Positions 44,443 through 58,285 of a stretch of 58,285 nt of DNA are shown here, one piece after another. Within the stretch, counting starts at the first letter, position 1, and every line of letters begins with the position of its first letter. The DNA lies in IMG/VR virus record IMGVR_UViG_3300050190_000052, positions 1 through 58,285 of that record. One strand, written 5' to 3'. The DNA comes from a virus (lineage: Duplodnaviria; Caudoviricetes). Position numbers and translations under genes: made by a program. The notes under the pieces were generated by a model. The model saw only the letters and a list, made by a program, of their open reading frames with translations. It made no database searches and was not told the DNA's origin.

Positions 44443-44586
44443 GTGTCAGCGGAACGACATCAGGGGACAATCATGGCGAAACCGGAAGAAATCAATCTCC
44501 GGCCAGGATGGCTGGAAAACGACGTGAAGCGAGCTAAAAGCCGTCTTGAGCAGTGGAACGGCGCATGGGAACGCGCGAATGCGGTG

Positions 44587-44898
44587 CTACCGCAGCCAGC
44601 GATCTCCCTCCTCCACCATCCAGACGCCATCGACCCGAACGAACCGATCGCGATCCCGCTTCGGCCGCACGCGGTAGAACGCCCATGAGTCCGGGTCATC
44701 GGCATAATGGGCATCGTCTGGATGCAGCCACGGTACCCGCAAGTGATAATCATCTCCCGGCATACCAAGCGCATTCCACAGCGACTTATGCAGCAACTCC
44801 GCTCGGTCTAAATAAAGGCCACGCCAGTTCGACTTCGCGGTCCAGCGGCCTCCGTTGACGGTGACGGTTTTCGGTCCGATCGGGTGACGGTCAGCCAT
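44587..44898 (-). CDS. hypothetical protein
   Basis: 103 aa, coupled to upstream minus-strand ORF. Confidence 0.5.
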   Translation of the reverse strand: MADRHPIGPKTVTVNGGRWTAKSNWRGLYLDRAELLHKSLWNALGMPGDDYHLRVPWLHPDDAHYADDPDSWAFYRVRPKRDRDRFVRVDGVWMVEEGDRWLR

Positions 44899-45073
44899 CG
44901 GTCTGGTTCTTTACTTCGACCAAACTTATTCGGAGCAGTGACGCCATTTCCTCTAACATCTCAGCGCGAGCAATGAACAGATTTGCCTCACGCCGAAGTA
45001 TCGTTGCCCTGCCCTCCAAATCAGCAGAAAACCTTTTCAGGTCATAATCACCCTTGAATTCATATCTGGGCAT
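44891..45073 (-). CDS. hypothetical protein
   Basis: 60 aa, TGATG coupling. Confidence 0.55.
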   Translation of the reverse strand: MPRYEFKGDYDLKRFSADLEGRATILRREANLFIARAEMLEEMASLLRISLVEVKNQTDG

Positions 45074-47031
45074 CAGGCATCGCCTTGCTGAATTTTGGCA
45101 TCATCTTCGCGATGTTCTGTGGCCGCTTTGTGCGCCCTCAGTTTTTCCCGCTGTGCCATGAACGCGTCGCGCAGAGGCTCGATCATCGCGGCCTTGTTCG
45201 ACCTGGTCATCCGCGAGGCAAACCCCTTCACGGCCATGCCATTCTGGAATTCAACAAGCTGATCTTCCGATGTGCAGGACAGCATGTCAGCGATCAGGTT
45301 TTGTTGCGACCGGATATCATCGGCATCGCTCGGGCTTGCCGCGGCGGTCGGTGCGGGAGACACAGGATCCTGTGATGCGGGGGCAATCAACCCAAGTAAT
45401 TCTGCTGGCGCATCAACCCCGAGCGTCTTGCACTGCTCCCGAACCGCCTTGATGCAGAGCGCGCGGAATGACGCCGGAATTTTTCGCAGCTCGGCCATAT
45501 TCAGTGCGACAAAGTCCTGATAGGTGAGCAGAGTCAGCGCATCGACCTCGACCTTGAATTCTTTCAGATGCAACGCGTTCATCTGTTTGCCGCGGTCCAT
45601 CTTAACCTCAACCACGATCGCGCGGGGAGGGTCATAGGCCAGTATGCCGGCCTCTTCCACATGCTTGTGCTCGGGACCGACTGACATCAGACCATCCAGT
45701 AGATGGGAAGCCTCTATGCTCGCTCCTTTTGCGTCCTGAATGCCATCCGCGTTCTGCTCCCAGAGCGCATCCCAATCGTCTAAATCAACCATTACTGCCT
45801 CGGTGAAGACTCTCACGAACACAAGCGGATCTGAGTAGACAATGGGGCTCATCGGATCGCCGTTCCGATCAAGAAGCATCGCCTCGAACGCCGGGGCGGC
45901 GACCGCAGGTTCACGCTCAGCCTCGGCGCGCGACACAGGCGCGGTTGCCAGTGTGGAGTCTATTAGCGGCCTGCCGGCGGCCTCTCCCTCCCAACGATCG
46001 GTCGGAATTTCGTCCAGGTGGTCAGGTGCATCTTTCGATCGCTGGGCTGTCGCGCGGTCGCGGTCTTGTGCCTTCTGGACGTCGGCTGCGCTCGGCGCTA
46101 CGGGCGATGCCGGCGCTTCCTTTGCGGCAGCTTTCCGCGTCGTCTGTCGCGGCTGCACTGCTGACGCCGTTGCCGCGGCGTGTTGCGTCTCGACGGCATT
46201 CCATGTCGCGCTGGCGCCAGTCTCCGGTTCAAACCAATCAGAGGCCGCGCTCATCTCATCCGTCAGAGACGCATAAATCTTGCTCAATTGCACAATGTGA
46301 GCCGGCCGGATCGCCTCCATGCGGCGTTGAATACGCTTCTCCAACATTTGGCGCGTCACGCCCATCCGATCGAATGCCTCGACCATTTTCAGTACCGCGT
46401 CCGGCGAGGTGTCTGCGTTGGCATGAATCGTGCGCTCGCATTCCTGGATAGCCATCTCGATAACGTCGCCAGGGATCACGGCCAGAAGGACGGCGCGCTT
46501 GCGACGCTGGCCAAGATTGAAAATTATTTCGTAGATGTCGCGTTCTTCTTTGAGGGGATGACCTCCCTGTTTTGTGTCGCGCCAGTGGCGAACCTGGAAC
46601 TGCCGTTCGTCGTAATACCCGGACTCCAGATCCCAGGCATAGGCGACGCATTCTGAGTAGCTAGGTCCCCTGCTCAGTTCCTTAATCCCTGAGGCTAGAT
46701 TCCCCCATCGTTGCGCGACCGCCTCGGCCAGGCGAATTGACGGCCCGGTGATATCCTGGCCTCCGCGCGCGTAGCTGTAGAGCGCTTTGGCGGCCAAGCT
46801 CTCCCGCGCACAATCCCGGATGATCTGATCCACTGCCCGGCCAGGATCGCGTGGCATCTGCCGGGCCATGATCATGCGGGCCTGGACCTCGGCGATGGCC
46901 CTCTGCTGCTCCACGGATATCAGCCCTTGCCAGCTGCTTACGGTGGCAAGTTCCTTCCCATTGCCAAACGGGTTTTTCCCGTCCTGGAAGGCTCTCAAGC
47001 GCGGGGCTTCGGGGCGTTCGACGTCACTCAT
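45073..47031 (-). CDS. putative ssDNA-annealing/recombination protein with long C-terminal extension
   Basis: QRAIAEVQA...PRD...ALYSYARGG..ITGPSIRLAEA..WGN...AWDLE; start set at ATG 47031 with GGAG RBS (track extension runs through CRISPR repeats). Confidence 0.6.
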   Translation of the reverse strand: MSDVERPEAPRLRAFQDGKNPFGNGKELATVSSWQGLISVEQQRAIAEVQARMIMARQMPRDPGRAVDQIIRDCARESLAAKALYSYARGGQDITGPSIRLAEAVAQRWGNLASGIKELSRGPSYSECVAYAWDLESGYYDERQFQVRHWRDTKQGGHPLKEERDIYEIIFNLGQRRKRAVLLAVIPGDVIEMAIQECERTIHANADTSPDAVLKMVEAFDRMGVTRQMLEKRIQRRMEAIRPAHIVQLSKIYASLTDEMSAASDWFEPETGASATWNAVETQHAAATASAVQPRQTTRKAAAKEAPASPVAPSAADVQKAQDRDRATAQRSKDAPDHLDEIPTDRWEGEAAGRPLIDSTLATAPVSRAEAEREPAVAAPAFEAMLLDRNGDPMSPIVYSDPLVFVRVFTEAVMVDLDDWDALWEQNADGIQDAKGASIEASHLLDGLMSVGPEHKHVEEAGILAYDPPRAIVVEVKMDRGKQMNALHLKEFKVEVDALTLLTYQDFVALNMAELRKIPASFRALCIKAVREQCKTLGVDAPAELLGLIAPASQDPVSPAPTAAASPSDADDIRSQQNLIADMLSCTSEDQLVEFQNGMAVKGFASRMTRSNKAAMIEPLRDAFMAQREKLRAHKAATEHREDDAKIQQGDA

Positions 47032-47061
47032 AGGGGTCTCCACGGTAATAGCGGTTTGGTT

Positions 47062-47273
47062 CGGTTCATCCCCGCGTGTGCGGGGAACGCTCGGAACCCG
47101 GATCTCCGTTCCGATCAAGAAGCGGTTCATCCCCGCGTGTGCGGGGAACGCCGGCATGGCAGGCCGGGCTCGATGGGGAGCTGCGGTTCATCCCCGCGTG
47201 TGCGGGGAACGCACTTCCGGCTGTTCCGGTTCGGCCTCTCCGAACGGTTCATCCCCGCACATGCGGGGAACGC
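47062..47273 (-). CRISPR. type I-E CRISPR mini-array: 4 x 29-bp repeats, 3 x 32-bp spacers, no cas genes
   Basis: CGGTTCATCCCCGCGTGTGCGGGGAACGC at 47062, 47123, 47184 and loop variant at 47245; 61-bp period; reverse complement has CCCCGC hairpin and 3' ATGAACCG handle typical of I-E. Confidence 0.97.
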
Positions 47274-47529
47274 CCATCTCGCAGGCGCGGGCGGTCGCAT
47301 TGTCCGGCTCGGCCTCACCGAACATAAGCTCGGGATCCTCCTCCTCAATTTCTTCCAGCTTAAGTCCCTCTAAGAACGGAATGTCATGCTTCGATTCGAC
47401 AAACCTCCTTTTCAGATCGCCGGCGTATTCAACCCGGCGGCTCCGGCGAGCAATTCCAACCATCTGATATGCGTCCTCGTCTGAGAGCGCCCACTGATTG
47501 TAACCGACGGTAATCACCAGCATTTTCAT
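47188..47529 (-). CDS. small acidic protein whose 3' end runs into the CRISPR array
   Basis: AGGAG RBS, MKMLVITVGYNQW...LEEIEEEDPELMFGEAEP, then reads through repeat 4 and spacer 3 and stops in repeat 3. Confidence 0.7.
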   Translation of the reverse strand: MKMLVITVGYNQWALSDEDAYQMVGIARRSRRVEYAGDLKRRFVESKHDIPFLEGLKLEEIEEEDPELMFGEAEPDNATARACEMGVPRMCGDEPFGEAEPEQPEVRSPHTRG

Positions 47530-47544
47530 TACACACTCCTGGGT

Positions 47545-48426
47545 TTAGACGCTGTGAACTTCCTTAATCACCACGCCGGGAACACTGCGCACTTTTTCCG
47601 ATCTCACGGCGTATCCGATGCGCGACGCATTGAATTGCAGGTAAACCAGCAATCTCGGGTCTTTTGCCGCGGCTGCTACCAGATCGGCCAGCTCCGATTC
47701 ATGTTCAATGAATTGCCACGTCGTGCGGCTACTCATCACGCCGCCGTAGACGCCATGCACACGGGTCCGATCGGCTGCCGGTGCGTTTACCGCCGCGTCG
47801 GCCTGCTCGGCCTCCTGATAGGCTGTGGCGGCTTTGTCGAGGGCTTCCGGATCGTCGGATGCCAGTGCCTCGGCTGCGGCAATCTCAGCGGCTGCGCGCT
47901 TGCGCTCGGCCTCCGCCTTCTCGTTCTGTAGTTTTTCGGCGTTGGACCAATCTGTGTACCAAGTGCCCCATTCGATAATGCGGTTGAGCGGGGCGGATGC
48001 TCCACGCTGGACCTTTCCTTTGGCATCGGTGACGACGATCTGGTCAATTAGCGCGTTTTTTGCCCCATCGATCGCCTTTGACGCGCGCAAAACGGGTTCC
48101 TTTTCGAGCACGTGCAACGACAGGATCGTTTTGTGAACCGACCTGAAATCAGCCCGGATGTCGGCGAGCCGGCCGAGCAATTCGTCATCCCACAATTCCA
48201 CGCCCTCCGGCTTCCCCCCAACGGTCGCCGGCTTTGTTAAGGGGTATTGCGCGAGGATGCTGTCGAGCTGCGCCGTCATCGCGACCACACGTTCTGCTGA
48301 TGGCGCCAGCACGCGGCGCATGTGATTATCCCATCCATCAGGAGCCAGGACAATCGTTGGGCCTACAATTTCCTCCGGCGGATGGTTGTGTCCAGGGCCA
48401 GGAACATAGCGCCATTCTTCAATCAT
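47545..48426 (-). CDS. coiled-coil phage protein of the recombination module
   Basis: GPGHNHPP N-terminal motif, coiled coil, RTRVHGVYG..SSRTTW, RSVPGVVI; start at ATG 48426. Confidence 0.65.
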   Translation of the reverse strand: MIEEWRYVPGPGHNHPPEEIVGPTIVLAPDGWDNHMRRVLAPSAERVVAMTAQLDSILAQYPLTKPATVGGKPEGVELWDDELLGRLADIRADFRSVHKTILSLHVLEKEPVLRASKAIDGAKNALIDQIVVTDAKGKVQRGASAPLNRIIEWGTWYTDWSNAEKLQNEKAEAERKRAAAEIAAAEALASDDPEALDKAATAYQEAEQADAAVNAPAADRTRVHGVYGGVMSSRTTWQFIEHESELADLVAAAAKDPRLLVYLQFNASRIGYAVRSEKVRSVPGVVIKEVHSV

Positions 48427-48797
48427 CAAAAATCTTCGCTCCGCAACAATCGCGTGTTGATCGGCTGTGTCGGGTTTACTGACGGGTGGCCCGGCGAATG
48501 GATCTGGGCCCAATCGCGGATTGCGTTTCGATGCGCGTAGACGGCCTCGGTGCATGGCTGGCCGTGGATCAGCAGTTGTGTGATCGGATCGTATCTGTCG
48601 CCGGTCAGCCACCCCGCGACACGTTCGTCCAGATCGTCCGGCGTCATCAACGGATACGCTGTACCGTCGACTTCGAACACGTAGCAGCCGTCCAAAACGT
48701 GAACGCACGCCGGGACTGGCCATCCGCGCGACCGGAGCCGCACGGTATACAGGCCAGGCTCGGGGCGGGAGGCGTTGCGGGGAGGGGGTTTGCTCAT
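48426..48797 (-). CDS. hypothetical phage protein
   Basis: RPEPGLYTVRLRSRGWPVPACV; leaderless start at 48797. Confidence 0.6.
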   Translation of the reverse strand: MSKPPPRNASRPEPGLYTVRLRSRGWPVPACVHVLDGCYVFEVDGTAYPLMTPDDLDERVAGWLTGDRYDPITQLLIHGQPCTEAVYAHRNAIRDWAQIHSPGHPSVNPTQPINTRLLRSEDF

Positions 48798-48803
48798 GGG
48801 CCG

Positions 48804-48874
48804 AATATCCCCGCTATCGCTTCCGGTGTCAAGCACCGTCACCAATTGACAATGGCGGCATGACACTAGATTAT
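48804..48874. promoter_or_regulatory. back-to-back divergent sigma70-like promoters
   Basis: Minus: TTGACA-17-GATATT-6 nt-ATG(48797); plus: TTGACA(48846)-17-GATTAT-6 nt-ATG(48881). Confidence 0.7.
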
Positions 48875-48880
48875 ATCCCT

Positions 48881-49192
48881 ATGGCCGACAAACCTAAACG
48901 CAAGGGAACTGCCTTTTGGTTTCCTGACAGCCTGGGAGGCTTGCTACACGCGGTCGCTCACGCTGAAGATCGCACGTTGCCGACAGTTCTGGCGCGCGCG
49001 CTTCAGATCTACGCTTCGACGAGTCCGGAATATCAGAATGCACTCTCACTCTCACAGGAATCCAAAGATGGCGAAATCAGCACCGAAGAAAGCAGCGGAT
49101 CAGACCTCCCCGGCAAAGCCGCGCGGGCGCCCTCCGGGATCGAAAAACCAAAGTGTGTACGCGGGTCCTTTGGCTTCCGCGCCAGAAACTAA
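48881..49192 (+). CDS. ribbon-helix-helix (Arc/CopG-like) regulator
   Basis: KRKGTAFWFPDSLGGLLHAVAHAEDRTLPTVLARALQIY. Confidence 0.55.
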   Translation: MADKPKRKGTAFWFPDSLGGLLHAVAHAEDRTLPTVLARALQIYASTSPEYQNALSLSQESKDGEISTEESSGSDLPGKAARAPSGIEKPKCVRGSFGFRARN

Positions 49193-49688
49193 TGGACCGA
49201 GCGACGACGACATAAAGGGATGGCTCGCTGAGGCCACCGAGATCGAGACCGCGATGGCACGCGTTCGCCAAAAAATGTCCACGCTCAAAAAGGACGTAGA
49301 GGGCGGCGCGGGCGACTGGAAAGCGCTGAAGGCCGCGCTCGCCAGCACGAAACTTTCCAAGGCCGAGGCGATAGCCAATCTCGAAGCCGCCGTCCGTTAC
49401 CACAAGGCAATAAGTGTCCGCGTGTCGTTCGACCCGGACGGACAGGGTACATTTGCCGATCTCGTTGAGGAGACGGTGAACGGGTTCTCTGGCGCAGTCG
49501 ATGAAAAGCTGTCCGCCGCACGGGCAAAAAGCGACGGCTTCAATTCGAGTCGCCTGGGTGGGACACGCGAGGATAATCCGTTCAATCCTGGCTCCTTGGA
49601 ATACGCGGCATGGCAGGAAGGACTGGATCAGGAGGTCCGCGATCGCGGCACGACGATCTTAGCCGAGACCGGCGAAGTCATTCACTGA
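49068..49688 (+). CDS. GapR/DUF2312-like DNA-binding protein with AT-hook-like and RMF-like motifs
   Basis: KPRGRPPGSK; DIKGWLAEATEIE...LKKDVEG..GDWKALKAAL; DNPFNPGSLEYAAWQEG. Confidence 0.55.
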   Translation: MAKSAPKKAADQTSPAKPRGRPPGSKNQSVYAGPLASAPETNGPSDDDIKGWLAEATEIETAMARVRQKMSTLKKDVEGGAGDWKALKAALASTKLSKAEAIANLEAAVRYHKAISVRVSFDPDGQGTFADLVEETVNGFSGAVDEKLSAARAKSDGFNSSRLGGTREDNPFNPGSLEYAAWQEGLDQEVRDRGTTILAETGEVIH

Positions 49689-49705
49689 TGGAGGGAGCCA
49701 TCGCT

Positions 49706-50215
49706 ATGAGCGACGGGGATATCTGGCTCAGCGTTGATCCTGGCCTGTCCGGCGCACTCAGTTGGGTGACCGGAGCCGGGCATCTGATCGAAGTCGTGGA
49801 CATGCCGGTGATCGAAGTTGTCACCAATGGCAAGAAGCGGCGCAAGATCGACGCAGCCGGGCTCGTCGCACTCATGGGCAAGCGGCCGGTGACTGGGATG
49901 ATTGTCGAGGCGGTGATAGCGATGCCTCGACGCGGCCCAGATGGATTGCCGGTGACCATGGGCGCGACATCGTCGAACAGCGCAGCCCGCGGCGCCGGCA
50001 TCCTGGAAGGGATCGCCGCGGCCCTGGGTCTCCCCTACAGCGAAGTTATGCCGCATGTCTGGAAGCGTCGCGCAAGCGTGCCGAAGGACAAAGGCGGTGC
50101 GCGGTTGATGGCACAGCGAACGTGGCCCGGCGCGTTTGCTCTGTTCGCGAGGGTGAAAGACGATGGGCGGGCCGAAAGTGCGCTGCTCGGGAGATGGGCC
50201 GCGCTCGGCAGATAG
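49706..50215 (+). CDS. RuvC-like Holliday junction resolvase
   Basis: SVDPGLSGALS, IVEAV, PHVWK, DDGRAESALLG. Confidence 0.85.
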   Translation: MSDGDIWLSVDPGLSGALSWVTGAGHLIEVVDMPVIEVVTNGKKRRKIDAAGLVALMGKRPVTGMIVEAVIAMPRRGPDGLPVTMGATSSNSAARGAGILEGIAAALGLPYSEVMPHVWKRRASVPKDKGGARLMAQRTWPGAFALFARVKDDGRAESALLGRWAALGR

Positions 50216-50426
50216 TAAAACCAAAACCCCGCCTTGACGGGCGGGGTTGGCCAGGACTAACCTGAATAGATCGCGAAAGGGGCGGCAAACCCCGATCCCG
50301 GTAGATGGCTGGGAGGACAGCCAGGCGATTTACGCCGACCCGAATATATCTGTTTCGGTAAAAATCGCAATAGCTGCCTCCGAACCATCATATGTTTTTT
50401 TTGTGTGGAACAGGAGGAATAGAGTG

Positions 50427-57583: not shown

Positions 57584-57763
57584 ATGCGTACCCCGATAAA
57601 CCTGTTTCCCATGGGAATGCCGTACCACGACCGCCGCACGGCGTGGGAAGACCGCACGTCCCGGTACCATTGGCGGCGAGGGTTTATCTGTGGGGTCGTC
57701 AGTTCGGCCGGAGCGCTTTTCTTTGGTGGGCTCCTCGGCTGTATATTCGCGTATCTGGCGTGA
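57584..57763 (+). CDS. 59-aa membrane peptide
   Basis: GGAGG RBS; ends RTSRYHWRRGFICGVVSSAGALFFGGLLGCIFAYLA. Confidence 0.55.
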   Translation: MRTPINLFPMGMPYHDRRTAWEDRTSRYHWRRGFICGVVSSAGALFFGGLLGCIFAYLA

Positions 57764-58285
57764 AAGCTCCACCGCCGCCCGGTCGCCTGGACTCGTACCA
57801 TGACGCGGTCGAGCTGGCGCGCCGCGGCATCGGTCTGTTTGCTCAATCAGCACTGAAGGAAATCACGTAATGAAAGTCGTAACAAACTTCTGGCTCAAGC
57901 CCGTACCTTCCCGCCGCTTCGATTGGTCCGCCATCGATGACGATACCTACGATGGAGCGCCTGACTCCCGCTGTCCAGTTGGATACGGCAAGACCGAGGA
58001 AGATGCCATCGCGGACCTGATGCAACAGATTGAGGATGTGGCATGATGCAAAACAGTCGAGACATGCTGCGCCGGCTTGTGGACGTTGCCTGGCAGGCGG
58101 CGACACAATCCACCGAGGTTCCATCAACGAGATTGGCTGACAAGATGATCAACCAGGCCCGCACGTCCCGGTACCATTGGCGGCGAGGGTTTATCTGTGG
58201 GGTCGTCAGTTCGGCCGGAGCGCTTTTCTTTGGTGGGCTCCTCGGCTGTATATTCGCGTATCTGGCGTGAAAGCTCCACCGCCGC
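57652..58285 (+). repeat. exact 127-bp direct repeat (57652-57778 and 58159-58285, the window end)
   Basis: Identical sequence read directly; second copy is the last 127 bases. Confidence 0.9.

Follow-up and report, generated by a model that had tools for sequence, protein, structure and literature searches.

Phage mini-arrays, as published, are leaderless CRISPR arrays that target genes of close relatives adjacent to the array while sparing the carrier (PMC6858448, PMC7099407, PMC8616872, PMC11656645). The idea of sibling targeting is itself already published for viral mini-arrays (Faure 2019, Medvedeva 2019), and the proximity of their targets to the arrays has been stated to be unexplained (Medvedeva et al., PMC6858448). 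It is in viral mini-arrays that the borrowing of host immunity by viruses, for use against one another, is most clearly seen. To our knowledge, the archaeal pair SPV1/SPV2 is the only one of them to have been tested by experiment. The locus described here is a bacterial type I-E example, which is useful for its three spacers, the sibling alleles on record and its recurrence in peat samples over years. Based on the anatomy of the array, its repeat family, the homology between spacers and phage genes, one sibling allele (at the protein level) and persistence across assemblies, we think it likely that the array bears spacers from sibling phages and that host CRISPR machinery is turned on these competitors.

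A type I-E array in the early operon of a peat phage

The carrier is a tailed phage from peat soil, in which the TerL and portal families were detected. The sequence analysed (the window) is the whole of its 58285-base virus record, which has a completeness estimate of 88%. Four 29-nt repeats and three 32-nt spacers with a 61-nt period span positions 47062-47273 and are read on the minus strand (Table 1). The array lies within a leftward early operon, with gene B on one side and gene A on the other, and its minus-strand RNA is predicted to form local hairpins with a GC-rich stem of 7 pairs and a 4-nt loop. The substitutions in repeat 4 are confined to this loop, the stem and handles being as in the other repeats. 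When I-E Cas proteins were searched against the window by tblastn, no match was better than E 0.04; the window leaves out about 12% of the genome. The earlier note's description of a cas-less type I-E array in a phage is borne out by the repeat/spacer geometry, the I-E repeat family and the absence of cas from the window.

Table 1. Coordinates of the array, its own-genome homologues and the neighbouring features
Feature	Position	Strand	Remarks
gene A	45073..47031	-	652 aa; phrog_3657
own homologue of spacer 3	45845..45879	-	inside gene A; 24/32 at 45845-45876; ATG PAM 45877-45879
repeat 1	47062..47090	-	last repeat; gene A start codon 30 nt downstream
spacer 3	47091..47122	-	32 nt; LLDRNGDPGS, then D or E
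repeat 2	47123..47151	-	
spacer 2	47152..47183	-	32 nt; plus-strand reading AAWQAGLDGEL, antisense to array direction
repeat 3	47184..47212	-	contains stop codon of extended gene B frame
gene B	47188..47529	-	113 aa as read; frame crosses repeat 4 and spacer 1, ending in repeat 3
spacer 1	47213..47244	-	32 nt; FGEAEPEQPEV in gene B frame
repeat 4	47245..47273	-	first repeat in reading direction; loop ATGT vs ACAC
own homologue of spacer 1	47291..47325	-	gene B 3' end; 22/32 at 47291-47322; ATG PAM 47323-47325
gene C	47545..48429	-	exonuclease-like; phrog_10477, E 2.4e-9, scored on longer 392-aa frame
divergent pair of sigma-70-like promoter matches	48804..48874	.	10/12 matches each, consensus scan only
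gene E	49068..49688	+	206 aa; no family matched
own homologue of spacer 2	49606..49637	-	gene E 3' end; 24/32; flank GCG, not AWG
RuvC-like Holliday junction resolvase	49707..50215	+	phrog_1770, E 1.2e-20

The 27-nt core of the repeat occurs exactly in at least 120 genomic stretches. Judged by the commonest two bases after the core, the same 29-mer is present in 31 of the 120 listed loci, and among these loci the repeat is identical to that of arrays across many taxa. Comparison with I-E arrays, as proposed in the earlier note, located the identical 29-mer in bacterial arrays directly behind complete type I-E cas operons; at two such loci (L020 and L054), 10/10 upstream ORFs tested were Cse1, Cse2, Cas7, Cas5, Cas6e, Cas1 or Cas2. 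Among 2472 spacers of genomic arrays with this repeat, from the loci listed, none matches the phage.

A host-type repeat in a phage could also act as a decoy or RNA anti-CRISPR, its repeats titrating host Cas6e and Cascade subunits or diluting host crRNAs and its spacer content being incidental. We consider this improbable. It would be in keeping with the viral single repeat units that review passages describe as proposed and shown RNA anti-CRISPRs, with single repeats of this family in IMG/VR contigs L005 and L010, and with the arrays of the same repeat and different spacers that co-occur in the same metagenome runs as the phage. However, complete 29-nt/32-nt units should yield ordinary crRNAs, and a decoy leaves unexplained both the in-frame copies of neighbouring genes in all three spacers and the fit of spacer 1 to a sibling allele.

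The surroundings of the array differ from those of its genomic counterparts. The leader motif GGT[AG] is conserved in 52/68 genomic arrays, and the 60 nt upstream have a median AT content of 59% in genomic arrays versus 32% in the phage. An AT-rich conserved leader is absent upstream of the phage array, where the sequence is that of gene B. A consensus scan of the region found no dedicated array promoter; transcription of the operon, array included, would start from the leftward match of the sigma-70-like pair.

The array is embedded in a recombination module with an exonuclease-like gene (gene C), a probable annealing protein (gene A) and a RuvC-like resolvase. The structure model of gene A (mean pLDDT 80) resembles, over residues ~52-204, RAD52 (Z 5.7, rmsd 5.5, 125 aligned), Sak (Z 5.4), Mgm101 (Z 5.3) and Red-beta (Z 4.5), with Foldseek matches at E 0.05-0.5. 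This suggests that gene A is probably a single-strand-annealing protein with an N-terminal Rad52/Sak/Red-beta-like fold (beta-beta-beta-alpha). The label of recombination gene, applied to it in the earlier note, therefore has moderate fold support but no Pfam or PDB sequence match. For gene E, the label 'GapR-like' (GapR/DUF2312) was not upheld: there was no GapR family among the Pfam matches at E up to 10 and no PDB sequence match, and the nearest Pfam row was RMF, sub-threshold at E 0.12.

Spacer matches to neighbouring genes and probable spacer sources

For each spacer, the best match anywhere in the window lies in a neighbouring gene, on the same strand and in frame, and synonymous differences occur among the mismatches of all three pairs. 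The match counts of the earlier note (24/32, 24/32 and 22/32) proved exact on recomputation. Its two sites with ATG were also recovered; they belong to the outer two spacers, in canonical minus-strand orientation, and the site of the middle spacer is flanked by GCG. Own site 1 is mismatched at positions 6, 15, 21, 22, 24, 25, 28, 29, 30 and 32, with the seed intact. Own site 3 matches at positions 1-17 and 19-24 (23/24 PAM-proximal nt) and is mismatched at 18, 25-29, 31 and 32, while the seed of own site 2 is broken at positions 1, 3 and 8. With mismatch totals of 8, 8 and 10, none of the three own sites is a perfect target.

Partial matches of this kind raise the alternative of self-regulation, in which array crRNAs, pairing over 14-24 PAM-proximal nt, would direct host Cascade to bind genes A and B of the carrier itself without cutting and thereby adjust their expression. 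The ATG PAM and perfect seed at own sites 1 and 3, in a geometry that prevents R-loop locking, speak for it, and regulatory cr-like RNAs of partial complementarity have been described in CRISPR-cas loci. We nevertheless find it very improbable. None of the sites is at a promoter, their positions being internal to coding regions or at 3' ends; own site 2 is missing both PAM and seed; the mismatches, synonymous changes included, resemble ordinary divergence between orthologues; and spacer 1 is better explained by a sibling allele.

Several controls address chance. With random 32-mers from the window (n=300), a best match of at least 24 was reached by 1/300 and of at least 22 by 35/300. Shuffled spacers (n=300), a check that the earlier note had put forward, seldom equalled the real ones (at least 24 in 1/300, at least 22 in 20/300). 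For a further null set, real I-E spacers (n=1000) were taken from genomic arrays unrelated to the phage and each was scored against its window; at least 24 matches were found for 4/1000 and at least 22 for 98/1000, and the best match fell within 44500-49800 for 77/1000. Using an ungapped local score (+1/-2), the null maximum was 17. Spacer 3 scored 21, which was reached by 0/1000, and spacer 1 scored 14, which was reached by 37/1000. The match of spacer 3 is thus far beyond chance, and that of spacer 2 has a chance probability of ~0.4%, by Hamming count only. Taken alone, the match of spacer 1 is marginal (4-10%), but its own site is 47 nt from the array. Jointly, chance does not account for three matches that all lie close by on one strand. 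As accounts of the locus, we consider chance similarity and an assembly chimera of phage and host array to be extremely improbable; the 22/32 of spacer 1, equalled by nearly a tenth of unrelated spacers, speaks for chance, but the local score of spacer 3 and the clustering of the three best matches speak against it.

With regard to the source of the spacers, sibling gene B alleles P0127 and P0129, which are 92 aa long with their own stop codon, read ...FGEAEPEQPQV... towards their end, where spacer 1 encodes FGEAEPEQPEV and the carrier's gene B has FGEAEPDNATA. The spacer 1 peptide thus shares 10/11 residues with the sibling allele versus 6/11 with the carrier's own; the comparison is at the protein level and one residue still differs. 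The spacer 3 peptide fits the conserved motif LLDxxG[DE]P of the gene A family, and the two sibling gene A alleles on record have M or T at the residue where the spacer encodes G. The spacer 2 peptide shares DGxL with gene E relatives P0125 and P0126, where the carrier has DQEV; in gene E variants P0124 and P0130 the sequence is AAWQEGLDQEV, as in the carrier. None of the A and E relatives examined provided a source allele for spacer 2 or spacer 3.

The earlier note had expected near-perfect spacer matches in related phages. This was not borne out: searches of IMG/VR with all three spacers, and of the metagenome collection with one, yielded no near-perfect DNA protospacer. Wobble-tolerant patterns of the three spacers gave 0, 0 and 1 matches in IMG/VR, and the lone match was rejected as chance, lying in another reading frame of an unrelated ORF. 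The site pattern of spacer 3 gave 19 matches in the metagenome collection, all unrelated, and 1 in IMG/VR. The proposed origin in a relative's orthologous genes is partly supported, by the in-frame diverged copies and by the sibling allele for spacer 1. Judging from these similarities, the three spacers most likely derive from orthologues of genes B, E and A in related phages. A second, independent case was found on an unrelated IMG/VR contig (L008), where a one-spacer mini-array matches an adjacent gene at 26/32 with an AAG PAM; 0/300 null spacers reached this match.

Persistence, proposed function and self-avoidance

The gene B frame through repeat 4 and spacer 1 (P0128) was found on 30 contigs, and the gene A frame through repeat, spacer 3 and repeat (P0121) on 24; contigs with such junction-spanning frames came from four sources. 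The 5-kb stretch with the array was recovered at 0.99-1.00 of sampled words in 19 peat-metagenome runs, whose filing dates range from 2018 to 2025. Three DNA runs contain contigs, identical to the phage (0 differences), that cover the flanks and pieces of the array at phage-like depth. The recurrence of the junction frames and these contigs stand against a chimera. We conclude that 47062-47273 is a genuine, stable, leaderless, cas-less type I-E mini-array.

Persistence also bears on whether the array is a passive relic. The phage could have recombined with a host I-E array rich in spacers against its family and captured a three-spacer piece that is now functionless. The lack of a leader is compatible with this, as are the three protospacer-like own sites, which lie on one strand within 3.8 kb. 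Such one-strand clustering is the pattern of primed I-E adaptation. A relic would further account for spacers that are identical in all assemblies examined, with no turnover seen, and for the private loop variant of repeat 4, which was never propagated. Recombination with host arrays has been given as a possible origin of leaderless phage mini-arrays (Medvedeva et al., PMC6858448). However, the array is intact across those contigs and years, and the changes in repeat 4 spare its stem and handles. Capture is also compatible with later use, so the dispute is limited to present function. We regard a functionless relic as unlikely.

If the array is instead a weapon against siblings, we infer the following course of transcription, processing, interference and self-avoidance. 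Early transcription of the operon would include the array, and host Cas6e would cleave the repeats to give crRNAs. With these crRNAs, host Cascade would locate the matching alleles in sibling phages that co-infect or superinfect the cell, and Cas3 would destroy the genomes of those phages. The carrier would escape at own site 2 through the loss of PAM and seed, and at own sites 1 and 3 through divergence over the PAM-distal quarter, where R-loop locking should fail. Effective mismatches in the distal part of these two sites number 6-7, and R-loop locking by the Cascades of E. coli and S. thermophilus is abolished when six mismatches are PAM-distal (PMC5934681). The earlier note's statement that the phage's own alleles have diverged needs qualification: at sites 1 and 3 the ATG PAM and a perfect seed are retained, and the divergence is PAM-distal. 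In E. coli I-E, imperfectly matched sites of this kind can set off primed adaptation directed at their carrier, and PMC7099407 discusses this cost. The PAM and seed kept at two own sites therefore count against the sibling-targeting reading. Own copies of this geometry bear on how carriers avoid both self-targeting and primed adaptation.

A further, more speculative proposal is that the mini-array is a selfish, homing-like cassette as well as a weapon. The difference between sibling and carrier is confined to a short block that begins in the tail of gene B, takes in the first 14 codons of gene A and coincides exactly with the position of the array. Similarity to the spacer 1 protospacer ends after 20 nt in the carrier's version, at the block boundary; on this alignment, spacer 1 may be aimed at the sibling sequence at that boundary, that is, at the 'empty-site' allele. 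The other two spacers match genes on both sides of the array, at distances of 1.2 and 2.4 kb. In a mixed infection, Cascade-Cas3 damage to an array-less sibling could be repaired from the array-bearing genome, whereby the array would be copied, in an RNA-guided form of marker exclusion. A literature search on mini-arrays and homing found no such proposal in the passages returned, where 'homing' in a review referred to transposons. We rate the proposal as unlikely; if true, spread of the array by repair of damaged genomes would explain why targets adjoin mini-arrays.

Comparison with described systems

The orphan I-F arrays of E. coli (Almendros 2016, via PMC8616872) likewise have spacers that match a sequence which is present in relatives and absent from the carrier, and they exclude incoming DNA with the targeted allele. 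Unlike the phage array, they are chromosomal, belong to another subtype and target I-F cas genes (PMC8616872). The single repeat units described as RNA anti-CRISPRs share a host-type repeat in a cas-less phage; they are solitary and without a full spacer, in contrast to the four repeats and three canonical spacers found here.

Intron-less homing endonucleases of T-even phages have nuclease specificity against relatives' alleles at or next to their own insertion site, and bring about marker exclusion. We hypothesise an analogy with these cassettes, which are also aimed at relatives' alleles in a recombination-rich genome, their specificity being protein-encoded.

The mini-arrays of the portogloboviruses SPV1 and SPV2 are also cas-less, and their spacers match close relatives at loci near the array, with mutation or deletion of the orthologous locus in the carrier (PMC6858448); the own copies are altered here too. 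They differ in being archaeal and of another CRISPR type (CRISPR-A repeat of Sulfolobales), and in having promoter-bearing leaders, spacer turnover and experiments behind them (PMC6858448), whereas the present array is leaderless and static.

The phage and prophage mini-arrays of Faure et al. 2019 are alike in their viral genome, the lack of cas and leader, and a bacterial-type repeat. Their spacers also match adjacent genes of relatives, with an imperfect copy in the carrier; here the relative's match is at the protein level, for spacer 1. In contrast to the one or two spacers of their definition, the present array has three, and it lies inside an operon where the upstream gene reads through into it. 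Two own sites also keep PAM and seed, and this unusual geometry makes the locus informative on self-avoidance by mini-array carriers.

The array and its genomic setting

Three 32-nt spacers separate the four repeats of the array. Three of these repeats are identical, and repeat 4, the first in reading direction, departs from them only in its 4-nt hairpin loop, which is an inverted form of the other loops with one substitution, the stem and handles being unchanged. Because this variant is absent from the other repeats, it argues against spacer uptake at that end since the change. Folding of the minus-strand RNA gave the expected hairpins for the inner repeats (7 pairs and a 4-nt loop). No degenerate extra repeat was found flanking the array, and an Rfam search over 46500-48000 returned no family.

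At least 120 bacterial genome stretches contain the exact 27-nt core of the repeat; they come from many phyla, with many Alphaproteobacteria, and include strains of Rhizobium, Komagataeibacter and Gemmobacter. Among the matches listed, the two commonest following bases give the identical 29-mer in 31 of 120 loci. We assign the repeat to type I-E because the upstream ORFs tested at two genomic loci that carry the 29-mer unchanged (L020 and L054) were all (10/10) Cas families of the I-E operon (Cse1, Cse2, Cas7, Cas5, Cas6e, Cas1 and Cas2). In genomes of this kind, cas2 is followed by an AT-rich leader and then by the array, oriented GCGTTCCCCGC..GCGGGGATGAACCG, which corresponds to the minus strand of the window. 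A GGT[AG] leader motif is conserved in 52 of 68 genomic arrays, and the 60 nt upstream have a median AT content of 59%. The corresponding 60 nt of the phage array are 32% AT and consist of gene B coding sequence; the phage array is leaderless. I-E Cas proteins searched against the 58-kb window gave a best E value of only 0.04. A passive relic captured from a host array might likewise be leaderless and closed to uptake; we regard this reading as unlikely.

The virus record (58285 bases, estimated 88% complete) encodes terminase, portal and head-closure families, and no tRNA genes were found in the window. Near its right end lies an exact 127-nt direct repeat, whose second copy extends to the record's last base; this could be a region of tandem repeats or an assembly stopping point. 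A divergent promoter-like pair, recognized by consensus scan only, would start a leftward operon in the order small ORF, gene C, gene B, array, gene A. To the right of the promoters are gene E, a RuvC-like resolvase, a DnaB-like helicase and a replication initiator. Gene C is exonuclease-like (phrog_10477). Gene A (phrog_3657) had been called a recombination gene in the earlier note, and this remains plausible but not proven: Pfam and PDB sequence searches gave no match, and residues ~52-204 of its N-terminal domain model (mean pLDDT 80) align at moderate Z values with the single-strand-annealing proteins RAD52 (5.7), phage 80-alpha Sak (5.4), Mgm101 (5.3) and Red-beta (4.5). The label "GapR-like" for gene E found no support in Pfam or in a PDB sequence search. 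Ribosome modulation factor (PF04957) matches the C-terminal part of gene E, though below threshold (E 0.12), and the spacer 2 site adjoins this stretch, just after it. Gene B has lost its stop codon, and its frame crosses repeat 4 and spacer 1 and ends inside repeat 3. A Cas6e cut at repeat 4, if it occurs, would leave the B message stopless.

Coordinates of the array, its own-gene sites and associated features (mismatches numbered in crRNA sense)
Feature	Location	Flank	Seed	Details
Repeats 1 to 4	47062-47090, 47123-47151, 47184-47212, 47245-47273			29 nt each; exact 61-nt spacing
Spacers 1, 2, 3	47213-47244, 47152-47183, 47091-47122
Own site of spacer 1	47291-47322	ATG	intact	gene B; mismatches 6, 15, 21, 22, 24, 25, 28, 29, 30, 32
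Own site of spacer 2	49606-49637	GCG	broken	gene E; mismatches 1, 3, 8 and five more
Own site of spacer 3	45845-45876	ATG	intact	gene A; mismatches 18, 25-29, 31, 32
Gene A	45073-47031 (-)			first 14 codons 46985-47031
Gene B	47188-47529 (-)			readthrough 47188-47298
Gene C	47545-48429 (-)
Gene E	49068-49688 (+)
Promoter-like pair	near 48804-48874			divergent
Direct repeat, 127 nt	57652-57778 and 58159-58285			507 nt apart
L008 mini-array	L008:836-1028 (IMGVR_UViG_3300043783_000043)			two repeats, one spacer; same repeat family, unrelated viral contig
Solitary repeats in viral contigs	L010:6937-6965, L005:3642-3670

Spacer matches to neighbouring genes and their origin

The own-gene matches of the earlier note were reproduced exactly (24/32 for spacers 3 and 2, 22/32 for spacer 1), each being its spacer's top match across the whole window, with spacer and site on one strand in all three cases. 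Among random real 32-mers of the window, a best match of at least 24/32 was reached by 1/300 and of at least 22/32 by 35/300; unrelated genomic I-E spacers with the same repeat gave 4/1000 and 98/1000. Shuffled spacers, the control proposed in the earlier note, rarely align equally well (1/300 and 20/300). With an ungapped local score (+1/-2), for which 1000 unrelated spacers peak at 17, spacer 3 scores 21, attained by none of them, and spacer 1 scores 14, attained by 37; spacer 2 is exceptional by Hamming count alone. The best match falls inside 44500-49800 for 77 of 1000 null spacers versus all three real ones, one of which has its match 47 nt from the array. Taken together, the three matches are not due to chance, the 22/32 match being unconvincing by itself. 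Each of the three keeps the reading frame of the gene it hits and contains synonymous differences, a pattern that diverged orthologues would give.

The decisive result on spacer origin, at the protein level, comes from two gene B orthologues recorded from other contigs, P0127 and P0129 (92 aa). Both share with the carrier's B the first 76 residues, to ...ELMFGEAEP (P0127 exactly, P0129 with 5 substitutions), and then continue EQPQVQVVPVPDDKVSF and stop. The spacer 1 peptide FGEAEPEQPEV agrees with these siblings at 10 of 11 residues, versus 6 of 11 for the carrier's FGEAEPDNATA. The contig recorded for P0127 measures 6285 bases and that for P0129 32699 bases, the latter length being recorded for P0123 as well. 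P0123 is an allele of gene A that shares 99% identity with that of the carrier, with differences confined to residues 4-14. From these two comparisons, the sibling departs from the carrier solely within a short block, the end of B through the beginning of A, and this is where the array sits. Over its first 14 codons, the carrier's gene A has an N-terminus (MSDVERPEAPRLRAFQ) nearer to that of a distant relative, P0003 (MSEAERPEAPRLRDFQ), than to the one shared by its near-identical siblings, P0123 and P0002 (MSDIDNADRPRLRDFQ), a likeness that points to mosaic exchange at the array edge.

Spacer 3 encodes LLDRNGDPGS[D/E] and falls on a conserved motif of the A family, LLDxxG[DE]P; where it has G, the alleles on record have M (carrier) or T (P0002, 90% identical, from a 2584-base contig). 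Spacer 2 encodes AAWQAGLDGEL, with DGxL as in the E relatives P0125 (DGAL) and P0126 (DGDL); the carrier has DQEV. Since no allele on record fits their peptides, spacers 2 and 3 presumably come from family members absent from collections. The derivation of spacers from sibling orthologues, as the earlier note had it, is supported for spacer 1 at the protein level; sources of spacers 2 and 3 were not found, nor was a DNA protospacer in the collections searched.

The carrier's own sites bear on self-targeting. One study (PMC5934681) reports that the Cascade complexes of E. coli and S. thermophilus no longer lock the R-loop when six mismatches lie at the PAM-distal end, locking being thought to be the Cas3-recruiting signal. 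Because of this effect of distal mismatches, the two seed-intact own sites would likely be bound transiently without being cut. Such binding could also serve self-regulation via Cascade, which we consider very improbable. According to the relevant passage of Iranzo et al. (PMC7099407), imperfect self-matches can cost the carrier via primed adaptation.

Occurrence in assemblies and searches for relatives

The array is real and stable. P0128, the B frame across repeat 4 and spacer 1, was recorded from 30 contigs, and P0121, the long A frame across a repeat, spacer 3 and a repeat, from 24 (NCBI, JGI, Logan and ENA; longest contig 68435 bases). A 5-kb stretch is present at 0.99-1.00 of sampled words in 19 runs from peat metagenomes (filing years 2018 to 2025), possibly from few sampling campaigns and some possibly the source of the window. 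In three DNA runs, zero-difference contigs tile both flanks and repeat-spacer-repeat pieces at about phage depth. That chance or an assembly chimera produced the locus has a negligible probability. No array-less joint was seen in four runs, which is not evidence of absence. The four runs examined also contain many repeat-spacer-repeat contigs from other arrays with other spacers, and so cellular arrays with this repeat live in the same communities as the phage. One metatranscriptome run held 40% of sampled words, with contigs that partly cover genes A, C and E, among others, and none seen with the phage's own spacer 3; as such libraries can contain DNA, the run says nothing either way on transcription or crRNAs.

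Region 44800-50300 had no blastn match among GenBank phages. Protein A, as a single query against IMG/VR, JGI metagenomes and GTDB genomes, gave pattern matches and zero confirmed relatives, and sibling protein P0127 was not found in IMG/VR. Near-perfect sites in IMG/VR, which the earlier note had anticipated, did not appear for spacer 3 or spacer 1 (0 matches each with wobble-tolerant patterns). The single IMG/VR match of spacer 2 (L151) was rejected; the real ORF, for a tail-fibre-like protein, is in another frame, and the contig otherwise has nothing in common with the window. MLLDRNGDP plus a PAM matched 19 metagenome sites and 1 IMG/VR site, most reading ...GMLLDRNGEPLA..., and neither blastn nor tblastn related any of them to the window or protein A. 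As to a host, none of 2472 spacers from the 120 repeat-bearing genomic loci among the matches listed matched the window (longest runs 20-21 nt).

Proposed function and comparison with known mini-arrays

Based on the array's anatomy and the origin of its spacers, we predict that it probably directs a host-Cas-dependent attack on sibling phages. Host Cas6e would release crRNAs from an early transcript, as predicted 61-nt species with the 8-nt 5' handle AUGAACCG; host Cascade and Cas3 would then attack siblings bearing matching alleles, and the carrier would escape.

Homing endonuclease genes spread through repair of genomes they damage. In siblings, spacer 1 targets the very edge of the block replaced by the array. 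Because spacer 1 aims at this edge and a putative recombination module surrounds the array, homing-like spread of the cassette is conceivable, and we hold it to be a doubtful extension; our literature search on mini-arrays and homing found no proposal of it. One simple crossover joining spacer 1 to its protospacer would not account for the origin of the array, as the own site is set apart from spacer 1 by 17 nt and a full repeat.

Other viral contigs carry the same repeat family. The L008 spacer matches the adjacent gene, ~100 nt away in inverted orientation, at 26/32 with an AAG PAM and intact seed (peptides DKLLKKHAAMI in the spacer and SALLKKHAAMI in the gene), a level attained by 0/300 null spacers; this is a second, unrelated case of a spacer matching an adjacent gene. 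Three further IMG/VR loci (L006, L007 and L009) are leaderless mini-arrays with 1, 2 and 2 spacers, and none of these five spacers has an own-locus match above null within the 5-11 kb of each contig. The solitary repeats of L010 and L005, one identical to the window repeat and the other a loop variant, are candidate RNA anti-CRISPR-type single repeat units. A role as decoy or RNA anti-CRISPR is quite improbable for the window's array, with its three gene-matching spacers.

An attack on siblings by means of host Cas proteins agrees with what is described elsewhere. In the part of Medvedeva et al. (PMC6858448) consulted, viral mini-array spacers target close relatives, the corresponding locus of the carrier itself bears mutations, and the targets lie near the array for reasons left unexplained there. 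The same passage describes the phage mini-arrays of Faure et al. as leaderless, as targeting adjacent genes of close relatives, and as possibly originating by recombination with host arrays. Passages in reviews define mini-arrays by one or two spacers. To judge from these passages, the present array fits published viral mini-arrays nearly point by point and belongs with them, apart from its three spacers and its position inside an operon.
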